A stretch of DNA of 64,000 nucleotides from a virus (Duplodnaviria; Caudoviricetes), in IMG/VR virus record IMGVR_UViG_3300028601_000021, positions 32,001-96,000 of that record; one strand, 5' to 3'. The translations under genes and the position numbers were made by a program. Within the stretch, counting starts at the first letter, position 1; every line of letters starts with the position of its first letter. Positions 5,308 to 59,633 of the stretch are shown piece by piece. Under the pieces are notes generated by a model. It saw nothing but the letters and a program-made list of their open reading frames with translations. It was not told the origin of the DNA and did not search any database.

Positions 5308-5348
5308 ATATACTACCGTAGTACCAATTAGGTACTACGGTAGTATAT
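5308..5348. terminator. 18-bp inverted repeat, near-identical to 13188-13232
   Basis: ATATACTACCGTAGTACC-aatta-GGTACTACGGTAGTATAT between convergent genes. Confidence 0.75.
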
Positions 5349-6421: not shown

Positions 6422-7471
6422 CTATCCTACGAATCCATATAAATGATATTTACTTAGGAGTGCAGAATTACCCTTAGCTGTATCTTGAGCTTTCAAGATA
6501 TGCTTAAGTTTCTGTAATCCAGAGTTATACCAGGGGTCCATATCCGGTAACCAGAAGTTCTTAAGTTTAGTAGGATCAAGATAAAGAGTCTTTATTTCAA
6601 TAACATCATTATTGAACTCTTTAAATACCTTGACTTGTTTGCTATCCCTTTTCACTAATCTACCACTAATACATATACAATCAGGTCCTTTGTTCTCGAT
6701 AGAAATCAATAACCCAGGGCGTACATTAAATCTATTACGGAGATAATGAGCATCCTTTCTAAGTGCCTCATAAAAAGCACTAATGTTCAACATAGGTTTA
6801 TGCGATATATCCTGATTGAGATTTTGTAAAATATCCACATCGCTATCTTTCAATACTACTTTATGCCAGTGTTTAATCAACAGAGGATACATGGCCATAT
6901 AGTCAGTGACTTTAGGGAGTACGATAGTAGCAGGGTGTGCCCAAGTATGCGTATCTCTCACGTATTCATCAGCTGCATCTGCGTCTGCTTCGATATCGAT
7001 GAGATAAGGCTTAATCTGATCCTTGACAGGATAGGTAGAGATATGTACTAATGAAAGAGATACGTAGTTTTTCTTTTTCTCTTCGTCATATTCGAACTCA
7101 TGTACTCTAAACATACCCACCACATAAGGATTACCATCTCCATAAATAGCACCTAAGATATGGAATCCAGGATGAATAGCGATCATAGCCTGATTGTGAT
7201 TATACTTATTACCAGGTTTAGCTACAACAATAGGAATACGAGTATGCATTCTATCATCCAAAATAGCGATACAGCAACCTTCTTTACCTACGCTACCGCC
7301 ACATTCCCACAAACTAAGAGTACTAGAATATCTATCCAGAGATACTTCTAATTTTAAAAGTACACTTCTGTCTTCTGCTTCTTTAAGGATATCATGCTCT
7401 GTGTTTGCGAATTCCAAAAGGAAAGAAGACATCCTACGAAGATTATTGTTTTTCTGAGATTTAAGAGCCAT
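6422..7471 (-). CDS. hypothetical protein
   Basis: 349-aa ORF with AGGAG RBS. Confidence 0.6.
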   Translation of the reverse strand: MALKSQKNNNLRRMSSFLLEFANTEHDILKEAEDRSVLLKLEVSLDRYSSTLSLWECGGSVGKEGCCIAILDDRMHTRIPIVVAKPGNKYNHNQAMIAIHPGFHILGAIYGDGNPYVVGMFRVHEFEYDEEKKKNYVSLSLVHISTYPVKDQIKPYLIDIEADADAADEYVRDTHTWAHPATIVLPKVTDYMAMYPLLIKHWHKVVLKDSDVDILQNLNQDISHKPMLNISAFYEALRKDAHYLRNRFNVRPGLLISIENKGPDCICISGRLVKRDSKQVKVFKEFNNDVIEIKTLYLDPTKLKNFWLPDMDPWYNSGLQKLKHILKAQDTAKGNSALLSKYHLYGFVG

Positions 7472-12046: not shown

Positions 12047-12064
12047 TCACTGTAGTAATATATA
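12047..12064 (-). promoter_or_regulatory. phiKZ-type early promoter motif TATATATTAC-N4-GTGA
   Basis: Plus strand TCAC-tgta-GTAATATATA; the same motif precedes other minus-strand blocks. Confidence 0.65.
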
Positions 12065-12136
12065 GATGAAATGTAGTTGTAAATACCGACTATTGTATAG
12101 AGTCTTTTAAATAGTTAAAATAGGAGTACAATTAAT

Positions 12137-13187: not shown

Positions 13188-13232
13188 ATATATACTACCG
13201 TAGTACCATTTAGGTACTACGGTAGTATATAT
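13188..13232. terminator. 20-bp inverted repeat
   Basis: ATATATACTACCGTAGTACC-attta-GGTACTACGGTAGTATATAT between convergent genes. Confidence 0.75.
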
Positions 13233-26162: not shown

Positions 26163-27911
26163 ATGAGTGAAATAGTCCAATCCGTACCTGGCTGGGTGCA
26201 TAGTTTACATATCGTAGATAAAGAAGCTAAGATCAATACCTTAATGGTAAAAGAAAAGATTTACCAGAAGGATGCAGAAGGTAATGTCACTTATAGAGAT
26301 AACTTAAAGTTTATAAATGATCCAGTTAGACCTGTGTGGGTCACTAAGCCTGGATGTAGAAATCATCAGTTTAAAAAGGAATTTGAATATCTTACTAATC
26401 TGGATAGATACAACGTACCGGATAGTAAAGTATGCCAGACAGCTCAGAGTGCCTTAGATGGTAGATATAGTAGTTATGAACCCAGACTACGTAATCTTTG
26501 TAGTAGTCCATTTGTATATGCTGCTGATATCGAAGCTGGTGTGTTCACTAGATATAGATATCAGAAACAAATAGAAGACTTAGGTGGTATACCTTTCAAA
26601 TACACAGTAGGTTGTCTGGACATCGAGAACGAAGTACGTGGTGATGGTCGTATCAATGCTATTACCTTTATACATGAAAATGAAATCTTTACTACGGTAT
26701 TAGACGATTACATGTATATCCACGATAGGGATAAAGGCACTAAAGTAAAAGCTACTAGAGAAGATGCTTTAGCTGCTATTAAAGAAACAGTAGGACCTTT
26801 GTTATCTGAGCATAAGTTTAAATTGACTTTTGCCATACATACCAATGAAGTAGATATGATCAAATGGATATTCAAACATATCCATGAAAAGAAGACTGAC
26901 TTTATCGGTATCTGGAATATGCGTCACGATATTCCCCACATGATGTATAGATTACTGAAGAATGATGTATTACCAGAAACAGTCATGCCTCATCCTGATG
27001 TACCCGTGAATCTACGTTTTGTTAGATATAATGATGACAAGACTAAAGATCTTCAGCATATCACCGACAGATGGGATTGGTGTGAAATACCTGGACATAG
27101 TCAATTCGTGGATGCTATGTGTCTTTACGCTAGGATACGTAAGACTAGTGGTCGTAAGTCCAGTTATAGTCTAGATGCAGTATCTAATGAAGAAGTAGGT
27201 AAAGGTAAGCTAAAGTTAGGTAGAATCACTAACCACTGGTATGAACAGAACTATAGATTCTTACCTTATATAGCTTACAACATCAATGACTGTGTATTGA
27301 TGCAACTTATGGAATGGAAGAATCACGACTATAGTCAGTTATTATCTCTTAGTGGTGTATCTATGTTGAACGATTTCAACAAACAGACTGCTATGGGCAA
27401 GAACAGTACTTTTATCTATGCTTTAGGTAAAGGACGAGTAATCGCTAGTGTAGGTAAGGATATGCTCACTCCTTTTGATAAGGATATCCCTAAATTAGGT
27501 GGTGCAGTACTATCCCCCGCTAGAGCTAAAAACATCGGTAGTAAGATACTGAAAGAAGCCCCAGGTATAGAGACTCAAGTAGTCATGAGCGTGAATGACT
27601 TAGATGTCACCGCAGAGTATCCAAGTATCACCGCTACGTTTAATATCTCTAAAGAGACTAAGTTAAGCACAGCACTCACTATAGAAGGTATGCCTAGATC
27701 TGCCACAGAAGGATTCTTCAGTGAATTACCTTCTCCTTTAGAAAATGCAGTACCTCTTTGTAGTAATTACTTCGGGTTACCTAATTACACCAAGATGGGT
27801 GAGTTATTCGATCAATATGTCACTATTCTTCTTAAACAGAAAAGCGATCCATTGATAGCAGATATAGATCCATTAGAATTACTAGATATACCTCTAGTAT
27901 TATCTAAGTAA
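26163..27911 (+). CDS. family B DNA polymerase, exonuclease/motif-A subunit of the split phiKZ-type polymerase
   Basis: ExoI CLDIENE, ExoII IWNMRHD, SYSLDAV, ExoIII YNIND, GGAVL, motif A DLDVTAEYPS....NISKET; no motif B/C, as expected for the split enzyme. Confidence 0.85.
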   Translation: MSEIVQSVPGWVHSLHIVDKEAKINTLMVKEKIYQKDAEGNVTYRDNLKFINDPVRPVWVTKPGCRNHQFKKEFEYLTNLDRYNVPDSKVCQTAQSALDGRYSSYEPRLRNLCSSPFVYAADIEAGVFTRYRYQKQIEDLGGIPFKYTVGCLDIENEVRGDGRINAITFIHENEIFTTVLDDYMYIHDRDKGTKVKATREDALAAIKETVGPLLSEHKFKLTFAIHTNEVDMIKWIFKHIHEKKTDFIGIWNMRHDIPHMMYRLLKNDVLPETVMPHPDVPVNLRFVRYNDDKTKDLQHITDRWDWCEIPGHSQFVDAMCLYARIRKTSGRKSSYSLDAVSNEEVGKGKLKLGRITNHWYEQNYRFLPYIAYNINDCVLMQLMEWKNHDYSQLLSLSGVSMLNDFNKQTAMGKNSTFIYALGKGRVIASVGKDMLTPFDKDIPKLGGAVLSPARAKNIGSKILKEAPGIETQVVMSVNDLDVTAEYPSITATFNISKETKLSTALTIEGMPRSATEGFFSELPSPLENAVPLCSNYFGLPNYTKMGELFDQYVTILLKQKSDPLIADIDPLELLDIPLVLSK

Positions 27912-29942: not shown

Positions 29943-30410
29943 TTACATGACAGCGCGTACTGCTTCAGCAAGTGCGTCGATCTGAGCATCGTCGATCAGT
30001 CTGGTCTCGGTGACCTTCAGTTCAACTACACCATACACTTCAGTGTAGGTACCGGGATCGCGCGGCTGGGGGTAGCGACGATGAGCGTGGCCAGTGATGA
30101 CAGTCTTACCTGTCGGGGTAGCTGTCTTCAGGATGACCTTCTGCTGCTTCGGGTTCTCGCCAGCCTTCTTGGCAGCGGCGACTACTTCAGGAAGCTTTTC
30201 CTGAATGAAGTCAATACCACCGGCAGTCATGGCAGCCTTTACTTCGGTGAAGCGCTTCTGCACGTCTTCAGTCAATCCCTGCTGCTTGAGGAACTTCACA
30301 TAAGCAGACTGGTTTACCGAATACAGGTTCTGCTTTTCGTCCTTCTTGGCATTCTCGTTAAAGAATGCCTGGGCTGCCTTTCTCATTTCCTGGTTCACTG
30401 CAATAGCCAT
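29943..30410 (-). CDS. hypothetical, probably highly expressed basic protein
   Basis: GGAGG RBS; capsid-like codon bias; early motif at 30512. Confidence 0.65.
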   Translation of the reverse strand: MAIAVNQEMRKAAQAFFNENAKKDEKQNLYSVNQSAYVKFLKQQGLTEDVQKRFTEVKAAMTAGGIDFIQEKLPEVVAAAKKAGENPKQQKVILKTATPTGKTVITGHAHRRYPQPRDPGTYTEVYGVVELKVTETRLIDDAQIDALAEAVRAVM

Positions 30411-42195: not shown

Positions 42196-43335
42196 TTACA
42201 ATCTACCTAGGAAATAAGACTTCAGTGGTCTTCTACCACATGATCTTTTCTTAGGTTCCGGACAATAACCAAGAGCATCGCACTTAGGACCAAAGACGTC
42301 ATTCCTAACTAACTCGTGATTGTAGTTCTGTACCAGTCTCTTAGCATCTGTAGCTATACCTCTGATTTCCCATTGAGCACATGTGCACATACGCTCATTC
42401 AGGAAACCCATAAAGCTATTCAGATTAAGTGTCATCACCACTTCAGTCATAGCCGCATTGTGGTACAGATATCTGAGATCTTCATTAGGTGGTTCATCAC
42501 CAGTAAGATCTACTGTAAGTTCTTTAAGAGCTATAGTGTCTACCATATTGGTGAATATGGTGCCCATGAAATGAGCTCTAGTAAAGATATTCTTATCGAA
42601 CTTAGGAGGTACGATGACCTCCATGATTTTTACGCCACAATAACGCTGGCTACGTTGGGAATAACTAGCCATACGTTTTCTGACTAACTGATGACTAGTA
42701 GCTCTACTGCATCTAATGACGAAGGTAAAGTTAGCATGTTCAGTTACTGACATATGTCTACTAGAGATACATTTATCCACCAGGTCTCTACACTTATCTT
42801 TATTTCCTTTAATATCGATAGTACCTATAGCTCTATTAAAGATATCCATAGGGTCTTCGTCGGAATAGCAAGTAGATGCACCAGTGTAGATAGCTTCCAA
42901 CGGATGATTAGTGACATTCATTAATTGGATACTAGGTTTAGTAGCTTTCACAAAAGGGATATCAGGATAATCTTCTTTTGTAAAGATACGATCAAATAGT
43001 TTTATACTACCGTCATCATATCCACTATAGATAGTAATAGGTCTATCCAACTCATGACTAAAATCCATAGCTATAAACTTGATAGCTTTAGATATAGTGA
43101 CTTTATTGACTTTTTCTGGTACAATAAAGTTAGCATAATGGATATTGTTAGCTGTATCATCCTTATAGATATCCAGCATATTAGCTACGCCTTCAGATAA
43201 AGGATGATGTATATACTCACGGTGAGGGATATCTTGATCCCATTTACCTTTAAGCATATTGAACTTATCTTCCTGTTCCTTTTTATCCACTACGGTACTT
43301 TTCCATACCAGGATATAAAATAAAATATCATTCAT
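42196..43335 (-). CDS. thyX: FAD-dependent thymidylate synthase with ~130-aa N-terminal extension
   Basis: HMSVTEH, SRATSHQLVRKRMASYSQRSQRY, EDLRY and R.C..AQWEIR motifs. Confidence 0.85.
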   Translation of the reverse strand: MNDILFYILVWKSTVVDKKEQEDKFNMLKGKWDQDIPHREYIHHPLSEGVANMLDIYKDDTANNIHYANFIVPEKVNKVTISKAIKFIAMDFSHELDRPITIYSGYDDGSIKLFDRIFTKEDYPDIPFVKATKPSIQLMNVTNHPLEAIYTGASTCYSDEDPMDIFNRAIGTIDIKGNKDKCRDLVDKCISSRHMSVTEHANFTFVIRCSRATSHQLVRKRMASYSQRSQRYCGVKIMEVIVPPKFDKNIFTRAHFMGTIFTNMVDTIALKELTVDLTGDEPPNEDLRYLYHNAAMTEVVMTLNLNSFMGFLNERMCTCAQWEIRGIATDAKRLVQNYNHELVRNDVFGPKCDALGYCPEPKKRSCGRRPLKSYFLGRL

Positions 43336-43344
43336 GTTAGATAC

Positions 43345-43719
43345 CTATACCTTGCATTTATTCATGACTGAATAGATCTTAGTAGTGGTCGTATCTAAGA
43401 TTTCAGCTATGACTGCTACACTCACGTATTTAGCATAGAGAGCACAAGCTATTTCTTTAAATTCATCATCACCCAATAGAGTAGGTGTGAATGGTATAAA
43501 TGTCTCTTTTTCAGCTACATATTTATACCGTATCTCTGATACATTTATGTTCTCATTATGGATGTGTCTAAACTTCAACAAAATATATGAATAAGCATAA
43601 ACAATATCCATCTCCACATCAGGAGTATAATCCGCACCATATACATCTTCTAGGACCGTAGGAAACGCTTTAGCGAAAGCTTTCCATACCTTACTACTTT
43701 CAAATGTAGGGATATCCAT
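43345..43719 (-). CDS. hypothetical protein with C-terminal HTH
   Basis: VSVAVIAEILDTTTTKIYSV. Confidence 0.5.
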   Translation of the reverse strand: MDIPTFESSKVWKAFAKAFPTVLEDVYGADYTPDVEMDIVYAYSYILLKFRHIHNENINVSEIRYKYVAEKETFIPFTPTLLGDDEFKEIACALYAKYVSVAVIAEILDTTTTKIYSVMNKCKV

Positions 43720-43721
43720 AG

Positions 43722-44675
43722 TTATACCTTCCTGTATGCTCTAGTGTGAAGTAAGGTCATCCCTAACTTTTCCAGATACCTGTGGTATTCAGTATCACCA
43801 CAAAGAGCATGAGCTAATACGATCTTTACCTTAGGATAAGCTTGACGGATATCGTAGAGAAATACCTTACCTGCATTTTCATCTAACTCTATCTTTTTAA
43901 AGCTAGACTCATGTAGATATTCGATATTAAAGATAGCTTGGATCTCTTCAGGTTCCACGGTATAGAACATACGTGCTTTAGATACTCCACCGACCATCCA
44001 ATTCATGTAAGGTAGGCTTTGATTATACATAAAGAGATTATCAGTCAGCGATCTCACTATCGGATTAAGCTTTCTTCTAGTACCAGCTAAACGAGGTGAT
44101 ACTTTTATAGCATCCATCCCAGCATATCTAGTCAACTCAAAAGTACTCTTAGGATGCTTACCTTTAGGATTAATGATAGCAGCATACTGATAAGTATATG
44201 GAATGAATCCCAGATGAGCATACTGTTCAGTAACAGTACCATTCACACTACTACTATTAATAGTAAGACTAGAAACACCGATACGTTTACAGATATCCTG
44301 ATACATATCAGTGAGACCACGTAAGATACCTTTACCTCTATGCTCTTCTTCTATGTAAACAGTCTCTATCATCATAGAGAGCTTATTACCGACAGTACGA
44401 GCTATACCGGCACCGACATAGGTATGTGTGGGTTTGTGGTATACACCTACGATAAAAGTATCTTTACCGTATTCTTCCCACCAGATCTTCAGATCAGCCC
44501 AGAAGTTATTATTACGCACACTCTTACAAATGAGATCGTAATACGGATCTATAGCACACATGTGCCTATGGAGCTTTACATCTAAAGTAAAGATATCCTT
44601 ACACAACACCATACGTCCTTCATCTTCTTTGACAGCAGGAGTATGGAGTATGTTCAATTTATAATCAGAGTGCAT
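43722..44675 (-). CDS. GNAT acetyltransferase
   Basis: IETVYIEEEHRGKGI acetyl-CoA motif, Y.HLGF, and a second degenerate repeat YLEKLGM. Confidence 0.75.
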   Translation of the reverse strand: MHSDYKLNILHTPAVKEDEGRMVLCKDIFTLDVKLHRHMCAIDPYYDLICKSVRNNNFWADLKIWWEEYGKDTFIVGVYHKPTHTYVGAGIARTVGNKLSMMIETVYIEEEHRGKGILRGLTDMYQDICKRIGVSSLTINSSSVNGTVTEQYAHLGFIPYTYQYAAIINPKGKHPKSTFELTRYAGMDAIKVSPRLAGTRRKLNPIVRSLTDNLFMYNQSLPYMNWMVGGVSKARMFYTVEPEEIQAIFNIEYLHESSFKKIELDENAGKVFLYDIRQAYPKVKIVLAHALCGDTEYHRYLEKLGMTLLHTRAYRKV

Positions 44676-44684
44676 GATAGACTC

Positions 44685-45605
44685 CTATACTAATTTAAAT
44701 CTACGTGCTTGCTTCAACCTGATATTGATAGCCTCAGGGATACGTTCATTGAGACCACAAAGACCACAAGGATTAAGTTCATCTTTTATCAAATGATAAA
44801 TACCTTCGTAATCTTGGTTATCTACATGACCGATAGCTGTACAAAGCTGAGATACTCCATTATGGATCTTACCATCCACTCCAAAGATGGGAGAAGTATA
44901 AAGCCCACGGTGTTCCATACTGACCATGACTGCAGCCAGATCATCCTGTTCATGTGAAATCATGATCATCTGCATACAGTTAGGTACTGCTGGTTTCTTA
45001 TCTTTCTCTCTGACAGGAGGAAGATTAGCACCTCTACCCAACCTGACTATCTCGATGTTATCTTGCCAATCAGGATCAAACCTAACTTTACTCTCTACCG
45101 GGACAGCTGTGATCTTATCTTCACTACCTTCAGGAATCTCAATAAGATCAGCTGCTACTGCTTCTCCGAATTCCAGAAAAGCTTCTTTACTGAGCATGGT
45201 CTTATTGTAATCAGGATAGTACTTATGGTGAGTAGTGACCAAAAGCAAACGTACCATATCCAATCCTAAGATACTACGGAGTCCTTTTTCCTTTTCAGGA
45301 TCACCCAACCAACTACCATTGGATTCTAGGATGATATTCATATCAAGTAATTCATTAGCGATATGAGTGATCATCTCAGCAAATTCAGGGTGTTCAGTAA
45401 ACTCACCACCACTGACTACTAGATTAACAGGTCTCATACTGGTAGGGATACTACTGAGTAGTTCCATAGAAGCAGGAGGAAGGTGTTTGATAAAGGATAT
45501 AACTGAATTCAAAGTAGGCCAATTCATATGACGACCTTCAGGAGTAGCATCTACAAAACAATGCTTACAATTACCATGACATTTAGTAGTGAGCTGTAAA
45601 AGCAT
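44685..45605 (-). CDS. radical SAM protein
   Basis: CHGNCKHC, SGGE, SNG and GRG motifs; C-terminal Cys residues (CGLCG). Confidence 0.85.
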   Translation of the reverse strand: MLLQLTTKCHGNCKHCFVDATPEGRHMNWPTLNSVISFIKHLPPASMELLSSIPTSMRPVNLVVSGGEFTEHPEFAEMITHIANELLDMNIILESNGSWLGDPEKEKGLRSILGLDMVRLLLVTTHHKYYPDYNKTMLSKEAFLEFGEAVAADLIEIPEGSEDKITAVPVESKVRFDPDWQDNIEIVRLGRGANLPPVREKDKKPAVPNCMQMIMISHEQDDLAAVMVSMEHRGLYTSPIFGVDGKIHNGVSQLCTAIGHVDNQDYEGIYHLIKDELNPCGLCGLNERIPEAINIRLKQARRFKLV

Positions 45606-45884
45606 ATGAGACTCCTTTGGAGTAATTTACAAATTTAAAGTAAGGACTGGATGCCGCACTACAGGTGATGTACTAGTCCCACCCGATATATCAGCTATAG
45701 TACGACATCCAGAGTATATATAGATATAAAAGATATTAGTGCTTCCCCAAACACTACGAGCTTTCGCTACTATATAGAAAGAGAGAGGAGAGCTACGATC
45801 TCCCTCTATACACTATCTTTTATATCTACTCTTTGTCCTAAAAGATATAGAGTAAAAATAATCCTCTACAGATACATCTCCAAA
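45606..45884 (-). ncRNA. putative multi-junction structured 5' leader (riboswitch-like)
   Basis: Multiple long stems with minus-strand G-U pairs, a GAAA tetraloop, and alternative SD/anti-SD pairing. Confidence 0.5.
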
Positions 45885-45929
45885 ATGGTATACCCACCAT
45901 ATCCTTTTAACACACCCATAGGTAATACC

Positions 45930-46742
45930 ATGCAAGATCCTATCCAATTAGCTTTAAATCGTATTTACTTTAAGATACCTAGAGAAATCCTAGAAGCTAC
46001 CTTCACTCCCAGTGTCCGTGGTATCAGTTTAGATATGTGTATCATCAATGATGTCATCCATAGTGTCATCTTAGCCGATTGCAATAACGGTGGTGGTAAG
46101 TTATCTAAGATAGCACTAACTACTGAAAATGCTGTATGTCTAGATCCCCCATTACCCTACAGTTTAGGCGTATCTAATACTTGGTCCGTTTATCGTATCT
46201 TACCTCATGCTAGAGAGAATAGATCTATCAATGCAGCTATATCTATTCGCATCCCATATAGCTTAGCTGGTGATGCTATGGGAGCTCAATCTATAGCTGG
46301 TATGGGTACAGGTAGACACATTAGTGATATGGCTTGTCTAGCACTTAACTCACATACACATACCGATCATATTTCTACCCCTACTCCTATCTTACTAGCT
46401 GGCGATGTAGTAAAACTCAATCCTCCTCAGTTAAGTCATCTGGATTGGATTTTAGAATGTCGTATAGCTTACGATGAGAACTTCACTAATATGGACGTAA
46501 ATATCATCCCTACCTTTGGTGAATTAGTAGTAGCTGGAGTAAAGGCTTATATCTTTAATAAGATGATATTTGCTGTAGACCGTACTTATCTCAGTGGTGG
46601 TCAGGAACTAGGTATCTTTAAGACTACTATCGAAAGCTACAGTGATCAGTATGAGAGATATGAAGAGTTGATTAAACAGTTCAATAGTATCTCTGTATTA
46701 GAACCTGAGAGACTACGTAGTATTTTGACTTATATGTTGTAA
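45930..46742 (+). CDS. conserved phiKZ-like virion structural protein
   Basis: PIQ.AL..I.F.IP.EIL...SLD..I...VI...IL.DCN..GG N-terminus recalled from phiKZ-like virion proteins. Confidence 0.6.
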   Translation: MQDPIQLALNRIYFKIPREILEATFTPSVRGISLDMCIINDVIHSVILADCNNGGGKLSKIALTTENAVCLDPPLPYSLGVSNTWSVYRILPHARENRSINAAISIRIPYSLAGDAMGAQSIAGMGTGRHISDMACLALNSHTHTDHISTPTPILLAGDVVKLNPPQLSHLDWILECRIAYDENFTNMDVNIIPTFGELVVAGVKAYIFNKMIFAVDRTYLSGGQELGIFKTTIESYSDQYERYEELIKQFNSISVLEPERLRSILTYML

Positions 46743-48050
46743 AAGTTTACATGGATAAAGGCTACAGGGATACAGCCATTGGCTGTATCCCTGTATAGCC
46801 GTACTTTTAACACTTGTGTTAGCAGTATAGCACTATCGTGCTATCTCATATTTAGGGTGTGTAATTAATTACACAGTAGTAGATTTCATTAACGTAGAAG
46901 TAGTAGGTGACACTATGTGGTAAAAGTATGAGGAAATCCATACGGAGTCTTGGTCCACCACCCTTCCCCCCTCTCCTAGGTTTCCCCTATCCCCTACCCC
47001 TTAACAAACCCCACCCCTACCCCATCCTACCACACCCCCTAACCCTTAAAGGAGTATAATCACAATATATAGATCGTGTATCAACTATTACATAAATTTA
47101 ATATTAATAAAATTACTAAATTAATAATTCTTTAAATCTTATTAAAATAACTACTAAAGTAATAATTTCTAAATCTTATTAAAAGTACATACTAAAGTAG
47201 TACTCTACGATTAGAATGTGATAAGACATACACCATCTACAATAGCTACTCGCTACTGTAGATAGATAGGTGAATAACTGATAAAATACTATTTAAAATC
47301 TATGAGGATAATACTAATTAAGTAGTGTGTATTTTTTTACAAACAGTAACTATGTTATAGTTGATAAGTAATTATTATTAAGATAATAGTACTACTGACA
47401 AACTAAGCTAATTAAAAGAACTTATACTTAATATACAATAAACGTATTAAGTATAAAAAGATAAAAGAAATAATTTGATAAGATATACTGTCACTACCAC
47501 AAAGTAGTGACAGTATATCTATATATGAAATTTAAAGTAATAGTAAACAAGAGACTAGTATTTGATAAGTAGATAGCGAATGCTGATATTTAAATAAAAT
47601 AGTAATAGTTAGTTATGAAATATTTAAAGTTATTTGAGATACATTACTACTTATACTACACCATCTATGTTGTGGTATGAATGGTAGAAGAGATATGGTG
47701 TTTATAGAGTAATACTGAAATAATGATAACTGAGTGATAGCTAAGTGTGTATAACGTGATACATCATAACTTATATAATACATATATGTTGTGGTATATC
47801 TAGTAAGAGAGACAATAGATAGATGTACTACTGATACTATTTACGTTATTTAAAGATATGATAAATATACTTTATTTGTTTATCTTTAAATATCTATAGA
47901 TAAGTATGTGTGATTTACTGTATGTTTTCTATCTGGATATTTATAAAAAAGAGATAGCAGTACTATCCTACTGAGTGATGTTTTTATATGATATAAACTA
48001 TATACTACTACAGCTATCACTTAGATAGCTGTAGTAGTATATGAGATATC
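46743..48050. other. 1.3-kb non-coding region, candidate replication origin or control region
   Basis: No ORF of 60 aa or more; C-tract, AT-rich block, ~38-bp tandem repeat at 47122-47199, seven same-strand TGATAA copies. Confidence 0.4.
46955..47046 (-). repeat. ten C-runs (G-runs on minus strand), G-quadruplex/i-motif-capable tract
   Basis: ccc-tt-cccccc...cccc-tat-cccc-ta-cccc...cccc-a-cccc-ta-cccc...ccccc-taa-ccc. Confidence 0.8.
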
Positions 48051-48251
48051 TTATTTCTTTTCGAAGTAGCTAGCTGGATCTTTAAACTTAAAGTCCATAG
48101 CTTCTAAGGATTCTACCGTAATAGGTGTATCATCCTTCCATACCTTGATCAAATCCTTTACTGCATCTACACCATATTTACCTGCTAAGATCAAAAGCAT
48201 CATAGCAGTTTCTTTATTCATCTGCAGTGTTTTAGTTTCTTCAGTAGACAT
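48051..48251 (-). CDS. small hypothetical protein
   Basis: AGGAG RBS; follows the lipoprotein gene. Confidence 0.6.
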   Translation of the reverse strand: MSTEETKTLQMNKETAMMLLILAGKYGVDAVKDLIKVWKDDTPITVESLEAMDFKFKDPASYFEKK

Positions 48252-48258
48252 GGTTATA

Positions 48259-55198: not shown

Positions 55199-55262
55199 AT
55201 TACAGTTATTGAAATATACTACCACAGTAGCTTTAGTAGCTACTGTGGTAGTATACCTATAT

Positions 55263-57633: not shown

Positions 57634-58491
57634 ATGAAACTAGTATTGAATCCCGATAAGCTACCTAGGATCACTGCTCTTTCCGATAATGCTAAAGTGG
57701 TATTAGATAAGAGATACATCATTAAAGATAAAGAAGGTAACCCTCTCGAAACATATGAACAGCTTTTCTATCGTGTTGCTAAAACAACAGCCGAAGTAGA
57801 AAGAAACTATGTGGATGGAAAAGTAGATATCGATAGACTGATGATCGATTTCTATTATCTGATGGCCAATATGGAATTCTTGCCTAACTCACCCACCCTC
57901 ATGAATGCAGGTAAACCCGATGGTCAGTTGTCTGCCTGTTTCGTACTTCCTGTCCACGACAATATGGAATCTATTTTCGATACATTGAAACATACTGCTC
58001 TCATCCATAAGTCCGGTGGTGGTACTGGATTTGATTTCAGTGAACTACGCCCTAAGAATGATTCCGTAGGTACTACCGGTGGTATCGCTAGCGGACCTCT
58101 TTCTTTCATCAGTATTTACGATGCAGCTACTGAACAGGTCAAACAAGGTGGTAAACGTAGAGGTGCTAACATGGGCATCCTACGTATCGATCACCCTGAT
58201 ATCATGGAATTCATTCATGCTAAAGAAGAAGATGGTAAGTTCAGTAACTTTAACTTCTCCGTAGCTATCACTGATAAGTTCATGGAAGCAGTAAAGGCTG
58301 GTAGTACTTACGATCTAGTATCTCCTGTAGATGGTCATGTAGTCCAGACCATGGATGCTAAAGAAGTATATACCATCGTCGTGGATAAAGCTTGGCGTAG
58401 TGGCGATCCTGGTATTGTATTTATTAAATATACCACTACAGTACTTGTAATAGGTACTGTAGTGGTATATGGGTTAACTGTAAATAGGTGA
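57634..58491 (+). pseudogene. nrdJ: N-terminal 264 aa of a class II (B12-dependent) ribonucleotide reductase, truncated or split
   Basis: FLPNSPTLMNAG, GQLSACFV, SGGGTGFDFS.LRP, QGGKRRGANM, HPDI.EFI, SNFN.SV, AW.SGDPGIVFI; the frame then runs into a hairpin with no NPCGE motif. Confidence 0.8.
58428..58470. terminator. 18-bp inverted repeat at the nrdJ breakpoint
   Basis: ATATACCACTACAGTACT-tgtaata-GGTACTGTAGTGGTATAT. Confidence 0.75.
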
Positions 58492-59567: not shown

Positions 59568-59633
59568 CTTGAAGGAATAATGAATAAGGAGATATAGCTA
59601 CAGTACCTATGATAGGTACTGTAGCTATATGTA

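Follow-up and report, generated by a model that had tools for sequence, protein, structure and literature searches.

A radical SAM gene and a DUF7484 gene diverge from a shared intergenic region in a phage genome, and this region raises three questions: whether it encodes a structured RNA, from which strand, and what such an RNA might do to the operon that lies beside it. The sequence-only reading of this locus had proposed a minus-strand leader with an SD/anti-SD switch, possibly a novel phage riboswitch or non-coding RNA. The window analyzed here is a 64-kb stretch of DNA, comprising bases 32001-96000 of a 156-kb IMG/VR virus record with an estimated completeness of 54%. The source genome is that of an uncultured phiKZ-like jumbo phage, and the phage record also codes for a phiKZ-type major head protein, a DNA polymerase, and a DnaB-like helicase. 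Jumbo phages of the phiKZ type transcribe genes with their own RNA polymerases, some inside the phage nucleus. To our knowledge, few structured regulatory RNAs are known from jumbo phages, and literature searches turned up no described structured leader in phiKZ-like phages.

Genes on either side of the spacer

The structured element sits between two genes that point away from each other:

44685-45605, minus strand: radical SAM gene (Pfam and NCBIfam matches; start codon 45603-45605)
45930-46742, plus strand: divergent DUF7484 gene (PF24302, E = 5e-40; common to phiKZ-like jumbo phages)

The radical SAM gene is the first of a tight operon spanning 42196-45605, in the order radical SAM, GNAT, a 124-amino acid protein, and a ThyX-like protein; this order is matched in the relatives L006 and L007 and partly in L093. 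Searches with the 124-amino acid protein (protein atlas, NCBIfam) gave weak HTH-like leads, and an RNA-binding domain was not found. The operon is probably one for nucleotide modification. The DUF7484 protein has tblastn matches in 214 GenBank phage records, mostly jumbo phages of Pseudomonas, Erwinia, and others. The gene was listed from the ATG at 45885 (285 amino acids), but its true start is probably at 45930 because most relatives are called at 270 amino acids; ATAGGTAATACC lies 5' of this in-frame ATG. The spacer is then 45606-45929, and the left boundary of 45884 that had been drawn for the element from sequence alone is probably wrong. Beyond the DUF7484 gene, 1.5 kb of the window (46743-48258) contains no ORFs, has a GC content down to 25%, and carries several hairpins (47422-47520, 48000-48042).

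Fold and conservation of the element

The core of the element (45643-45839, ~195 nt, minus strand) is a three-way junction of a closing helix, P0, and two domains, D1 and D2. Its parts and neighbors are as follows:

45835-45839, minus strand: P0 5' strand AGGAC, forming a 5-bp closing helix with 45643-45647
45643-45647, minus strand: P0 3' strand GUCCU, kept in all lineages; the tail following it is only 51-60% identical
45711-45832, minus strand: domain 1 (D1), P1a and P1b around a four-way junction with hairpins H1, H2, and H3
45828-45832 with 45711-45715, minus strand: P1a, AGAGU/ACUCU
45814-45827 with 45722-45735, minus strand: P1b, 15 bp; the stem TAGATATAAAAGATA/TATCTTTTATATCTA covers 45814-45828 with 45721-45735
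45771-45812, minus strand: H1, a 14-bp hairpin with a 14-nt pyrimidine-rich loop, AGCUCUCCUCUCUC
45759-45768, minus strand: H2, AGC-GAAA-GCU
45736-45757, minus strand: H3, TAGTGTTT-GGGG-AAGCACTA, with a GGGG loop
45647-45712, minus strand: domain 2 (D2), one long hairpin of ~27 bp
45626-45642, minus strand: U-rich tract UACUUUAAAUUUGUAAA, directly after P0/D2
45611-45623, minus strand: SD hairpin ACUCC-AAA-GGAGU, 4-5 bp and weak, holding the SD GGAG at 45612-45615
45840-45929, no strand assigned: upstream conserved block, 80-89% identity between lineages

The interrupted D1 closing stem (P1a plus P1b) amounts to 20 bp. D2 consists of a lower stem of 17-18 bp with several G-U pairs, a 1x1 internal loop, and short upper stems, and its apex (CGGGUGGGACUA, with a GUGGGA apical loop) is invariant. 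The minimum free energy (MFE) of the minus-strand RNA is -98.3 kcal/mol (z -5.4 against dinucleotide shuffles, none of 100 of which equaled it). Much of this fold had already been picked out by eye: the 15-bp D1 stem, the AGC-GAAA-GCT and GGGG-loop hairpins, an 18-bp D2 stem with G-U pairs, the AGGAC/GTCCT frame, which pairs as P0, and the ACTCC-AAA-GGAGT hairpin over the SD are all present. For the first D1 hairpin, AGAGGGAGA proved to pair better with the far tract TCTCTCTTTCT (UCUCUCUUUCU) than with the near one, TCTCCTCT. In L007, three of the nine near pairs are lost; of the 14 far pairs, two are lost in L007 on the alignment as built, and 12 clean pairs are read when that sequence is realigned by hand around its extra U. 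Two inner hairpins had been drawn within D2, but its inside continues as a single hairpin interrupted by small internal loops.

Ten further copies of the spacer were collected from public assemblies by radical SAM and DUF7484 protein searches followed by contig look-ups. The resulting 11 homologous copies, in which the three-way junction is kept, fall into three lineages (the window with L093 and L097-L100; L006 with L094-L096; and L007), between which the flanking genes retain 56-73% third-codon-position identity, i.e., are 27-44% different. An alignment of five sequences gave a consensus of 107 pairs, in which 95% of cells are paired, versus 35-56% with partners slid by one to three columns. 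Thirteen pairs are altered on both sides in this five-copy alignment, a number reached by none of 500 shuffles.

The two domains differ in how they vary. Eight of the 27 pairs of D2 show two-sided changes and nine show one-sided changes, its pairing holding in ~95% of cells (94.8%) versus 23-43% when slid, while its identity between lineages (65-69%) is no higher than the third-codon-position identity of the flanking genes. Judged from these alignments, D2 evolves at the neutral rate while its pairing stays. D1 is 77-94% identical between lineages, with 96.7% of cells paired over eight distinct sequences; three of its pairs changed on both sides (one in P1b and two in H3), one position in H3 runs through G-C, G-U, and A-U, and P1b of L007 has a compensatory inserted U-A pair. 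No variation is seen in the H1, H3, and D2 loops or in the strands of P0 and P1a while stems vary, over three lineages only. AGGAC/GUCCU is unchanged in every copy covering P0, AGGAC lying within a 19-nt invariant block; covariation in P0 is impossible because both strands are invariant. P0 is part of the MFE fold in the four sequences tested, which come from all three lineages.

The strand could be assigned from the same predictions. The helices contain G-U in 85 cells versus A-C in 11, A-C being what a G-U pair on the opposite strand would appear as. The RNAalifold consensus energy is -89.9 kcal/mol for the minus strand versus -52.2 kcal/mol for the plus strand, with the minus strand better in every sub-region, D1 included (-38.6 versus -24.9 kcal/mol). 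The RNA is therefore placed on the radical SAM sense strand by the G-U/A-C ratio and the RNAalifold energies, whereas a palindrome acting as DNA would be expected to look alike on both strands. The covariance models differ in the same sense: the D1 model (R2) scores 148.6 bits on the minus strand versus 14 on the plus, and the D2 model (R1) 95.4 versus 36 bits. Covarying pairing on one strand in independent lineages points to a conserved, structured, functional RNA, and we consider it very probable that a functional RNA is encoded on the minus strand. The covarying pairs, the G-U pairs seen on one strand, and the failure of any Rfam family to match all speak for the core of the sequence-only reading, namely that a structured minus-strand RNA of no described family lies beside the radical SAM operon.

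The block upstream of the core is less clear-cut. On the minus strand it could form a further hairpin domain, for which there is weaker support (structure conservation index ~0.68, two two-sided pair changes, and 13 unpaired cells). Read on the plus strand, the block is the DUF7484 5' UTR, with an ACCCACC motif (45892-45898) and a ribosome-binding site, which explains at least part of its conservation. A short minus-strand frame from the AUG at 45900 (MVGIPFW..CR; window 45865-45900) is open for 12 codons in three lineages; it is probably not a genuine leader peptide, its substitutions being mostly non-synonymous and its SD spacing poor.

Transcription and the proposed leader role

A promoter for the element was sought among the motifs of the phage genome. 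An early-promoter-like motif, gTATATATTACtannnTGA, was recognized; its core, TATATTAC, occurs 28 times genome-wide (16 expected). In roughly a dozen cases the extended consensus is present as well, upstream of gene blocks. Examples of the motif lie at window positions 12062, 26103, 30519, 42175, 52933, and 59565 (minus strand). No good copy of gTATATATTACtannnTGA was found in the spacer. The only TATTAC-like site there, at 45919-45927, was rejected as an early promoter, being a poor match that is mutated in L006 and L100. A TATAGAG-type motif follows some of the terminators, but the TATAGAG in H1 was likewise rejected as a promoter: TATAGAA or TATGGAA can replace it with H1 pairing kept, which indicates that structure, not the motif, is constrained. 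Elsewhere, CTATTTTATAGAGT(C/A)TTT recurs right after terminator hairpins, ~40 nt upstream of start codons (window 12085-12110 on the plus strand; G000 27100-27125 and 7300-7325), and may mark another kind of promoter (middle or late) or belong to a terminator tail.

D2 ends 41 nt ahead of the radical SAM start codon on the same strand, and this poorly conserved tail (51-60% identity) contains neither the early promoter core TATATTAC nor a TATAGAG-type motif. Because the 41-nt tail is without a promoter motif, we infer that the operon is transcribed through the element.

The tail is also where the element resembles the terminators of this phage. After GUCC, 7-8 of 12 nt are U in the alignment of all three lineages versus 3.7 expected. 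The 156-kb record contains 61 perfect hairpins with stems of 12-21 bp, most of them at gene ends and many sharing ATATAC...ACTACAGTA-type arms (in the window, e.g., 5308-5348, 13188-13232, 48000-48042, 55215-55255, 58428-58470, and 59592-59630). Their T-rich tails average 6.2 of 12 nt on the richer side versus 3.7 expected, and they are probably bidirectional terminators. D2 is like these palindromes in having a long stem and a U-rich tail and in sharing the CTGTAGTG-type core in its 3' arm, and the D2 model weakly matches one of them, at 58428-58470 (17.2 bits). Unlike them, it is imperfect, its G-U pairs work on one strand only, its structured 30-nt apex has an invariant loop, it is joined to D1 via P0, and a GUCC spacer stands ahead of its U-tract. 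A simple terminator scan did not call D2/P0 and the U-tract, and the GUCC spacer intervenes unless P0 forms.

The reading that we prefer, at a probability of roughly 45%, is that the element is the leader of the radical SAM-GNAT-ThyX-like operon, acting as a fixed cis regulatory or processing module and not as a finely balanced switch. The element would be transcribed as the 5' leader of the operon, and D2/P0 with the U-tract would then terminate a fraction of the transcripts, throttling or timing read-through into the operon. Such attenuation is proposed because D2/P0 followed by the U-tract resembles the hairpin-plus-U terminators of the phage. The small SD hairpin might further damp translation initiation, the long stems could shield the 5' part of the mRNA or offer sites to double-strand RNases, and some factor (a protein, an RNA, or a ligand) presumably modulates termination.

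The SD hairpin is predicted in the consensus, with one-sided changes only. The SD bases are locally paired with a probability of 0.7-0.97 in the window, L100, and L007; in L006, the SD pairs instead with the far-5' CCUAUGGG, which is the complement of the DUF7484 ribosome site.

Several points sit uneasily with the leader reading. No minus-strand promoter was identified, and an intrinsic terminator would not usually have a GUCC spacer ahead of its U-tract or be so large a structure. Efficient termination at D2 could also mean that the element is a small RNA in its own right. The loops, being invariant, hint at some specific partner for which a leader model has no name; they suggest a tertiary contact, a protein, or another RNA.

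A ~195-nt RNA supported by covariation and standing before a probable nucleotide-modification operon is a concrete target, which could be used for studying the timing and dosing of DNA-modifying enzymes in such phages. It constitutes a new RNA family even if it is no more than a static leader, and it provides an example of how a larger RNA may incorporate a hairpin of the terminator type.

Other possible roles for the RNA and its distribution

A stand-alone, trans-acting small RNA, comprising D1 and D2, started from a promoter in the upstream block, ended at D2/P0 and the U-tract, and acting through its invariant loops, is unlikely. The end of the element is terminator-like, and its loops are invariant while stems drift. 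The loop CUCUCCUCUC is complementary to the AGAGGAG/AAGGAG ribosome-binding sites of the phage, its dominant SD forms, and the G-rich loops (GGGG and GGGUGGGA) are complementary to the ACCCACC of several phage 5' UTRs, that of DUF7484 included; CCCACC, the core of ACCCACC, is enriched upstream of genes (six observed versus 0.9 expected). The genome has, moreover, another candidate small RNA (G000 147335-147470), whose features include an early promoter, loops rich in G, and a run of UUUUU after a hairpin. Nevertheless, a separate RNA would leave the radical SAM operon without a promoter of its own, as nothing promoter-like is conserved in the 41-nt tail, and for the small RNA itself no promoter motif was found. 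The complementary stretches in the loops span 5-7 nt, which is short, and were picked after the fact, among loops that are invariant, and ATGGGTG-type motifs are only ~2-fold enriched genome-wide, mostly in coding sequence. For this same enrichment and location, the (U)AUGGGUG motif shared with the other candidate small RNA was set aside.

Phage-encoded multi-stem RNAs acting on the transcription or packaging machinery are known in the HK022 put antitermination RNAs and the phi29 pRNA. The element is like them in being phage-encoded, clade-specific, and multi-stem, and complementary loops could allow loop-loop contacts. It has no sequence or architectural homology to them, however, its size and gene context differ, and nothing links it to RNA polymerase or capsid.

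Two observations were made along with these comparisons. The other candidate small RNA (G000:C1:147335-147470, plus strand, the same as L103:1430-1565) carries TATATTAC, two hairpins with UGGGAC and AUGGGUG loops, a 14-bp stem, and UUUUU; the D2 model matches it weakly (15.3 bits). The C-rich motif (tt)ACCCACC lies on the sense strand ~20-45 nt upstream of start codons and within 60 nt upstream of at least 13 genes, e.g., at 26163(+), 29943-30410(-), 75613-76668(-), 99301-101835(-), 111166-111951(-), and 45892-45898(+); ACCCACC is complementary to the G-rich loops both of the element and of the candidate at 147335-147470.

That the element belongs to an undescribed riboswitch class, with D1 (with or without D2) as an aptamer for SAM/SAH, folate, dUMP, or another nucleotide that sets termination at D2/P0 or access to the SD, is quite unlikely. 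Such leaders in Rfam (e.g., SAM-I, RF00162, a four-way-junction aptamer) are, as the element appears to be if it is co-transcribed, sense-strand 5' leaders of metabolic operons. Like it, they combine a junction of several helices with covarying stems, a partly occluded SD, and loops and junction bases that do not vary (for the element over three lineages only, so that invariance is weak evidence). All of these, together with its apparent 5'-leader position on the sense strand and the lack of a match to any known family, speak for a riboswitch. The ligands SAM, folate, or a nucleotide are guesses from gene context. Set against the Rfam leaders, the element has no family match, a strongly favored fold, and helices of 20 and ~27 bp, closing stems far beyond typical switching helices; it comes from three lineages of one clade, and no mutually exclusive platform was found. 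The narrowness of that clade, together with relatives of the same radical SAM gene that are without the element (such as L012), also counts against a riboswitch.

In four sequences, drawn from all three lineages, the P0+P1 junction conformer has the minimum free energy, with the best alternative 7.3-15.3 kcal/mol worse. That alternative, a candidate balanced conformer (B1:A2) in which the upstream AUCUUUUA pairs with the P1 5' arm, was rejected at this cost and is broken in L007. No conserved partner was found for either arm of D2, nor was a conserved mutually exclusive expression platform, whether an antiterminator or an anti-SD. The switch at the center of the sequence-only reading, in which the far-5' TTTGGAG (45878-45884) pairs with CTCCAAA to free the SD, had to be abandoned: the pairing has no two-sided change, its pairs are broken in L006, L007, and L093, and its probability is <5% in every lineage folded. 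Modeling favors a stable cis-acting leader over a balanced riboswitch because the junction fold is the MFE by 7-15 kcal/mol.

A wider version of the sensing idea would make the element a new class of signal-sensing phage RNA, in which read-through of D2/P0 is gated either by a metabolite from nucleotide modification of the radical SAM/ThyX type or by a protein or RNA of the phage that docks on the invariant CUCUCCUCUC and GGGUGGGA loops. This we regard as quite doubtful. If true, it would be a ligand- or factor-responsive attenuator working with the multisubunit RNA polymerases that a phiKZ-like jumbo phage encodes, and the finding of a ligand or factor would establish a new sensory RNA class.

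The element might instead serve in processing or stability, its 20-27 bp stems being RNase III type sites or 5' stabilizers, and so governing how long the operon mRNA lasts and how it is translated; we judge this distinctly improbable as a separate explanation. RNase III-processed leaders and intercistronic hairpins are familiar from phages lambda and T7, and the predicted stems of the element would be similar in being of about two turns and in a phage mRNA leader near a ribosome-binding site. The two helices are nearly uninterrupted and show compensatory change amid sequence drift, and, with a transcription start near 45839, P0 would hold the 5' end within a helix. The invariant apical loops and the four-way junction, which belong to the element and not to the lambda and T7 sites, are left unexplained, however. 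Processing also overlaps with the leader explanation and does not exclude it.

A purely DNA-level feature of the divergent promoter region (operator palindromes, cruciforms, or an origin-like site) is very improbable, for although divergent genes flank the region, which has to accommodate the DUF7484 promoter at least, its plus strand also folds better than shuffles (z -5.4), and the genome is rich in perfect palindromes, protein-binding palindromes conserve sequence whereas the D2 arms drift at a neutral rate with pairing kept, G-U is eight times commoner than A-C, the consensus energy is better by 38 kcal/mol on the minus strand, and a compensatory inserted base pair is present.

The distribution of the element was surveyed with both RNA families and homolog searches. 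Rfam 15 (4227 models) gave no family at gathering thresholds over the whole window; between 45400 and 46100, at E up to 10, there were three chance-level matches only (snoRNA and miRNA models, 12-15 bits), and five related loci gave no match at E up to 0.1. A tRNA/tmRNA scan found none. Within its own genome the element is not repeated, the D2 model finding no second copy, and a DNA search of GenBank phages returned chance 27-nt matches only. Protein-guided scans of IMG/VR found no relatives, and pattern scans of IMG/VR with the 19-nt invariant block and with the H1-loop/H2 block gave 0 matches. The three IMG/VR matches to the D2 apex pattern each lie within unrelated coding sequence and were discarded as chance. 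The D1 and D2 models matched none of 85 loci of distant radical SAM relatives, made up of 80 metagenome loci (radical SAM 21-38% identical) and L008-L012 (45-48% identical). The element is limited to one phage clade, in three lineages, and matches no described RNA family.

Where the element is lacking, the spacer takes other forms. In L012 it is plain, AT-rich, and 186 nt long. In L008 (351-1647; radical SAM 48% identical), the spacer contains a different, strongly folding sequence of 350 nt (z -3.9) with a closing stem, GCGGCAGCGA/UCGCUGCC, around several hairpins, and it also holds an inserted GC-rich ORF of 259 amino acids with no Pfam match. The radical SAM/DUF7484 spacer looks like an insertion hot spot.
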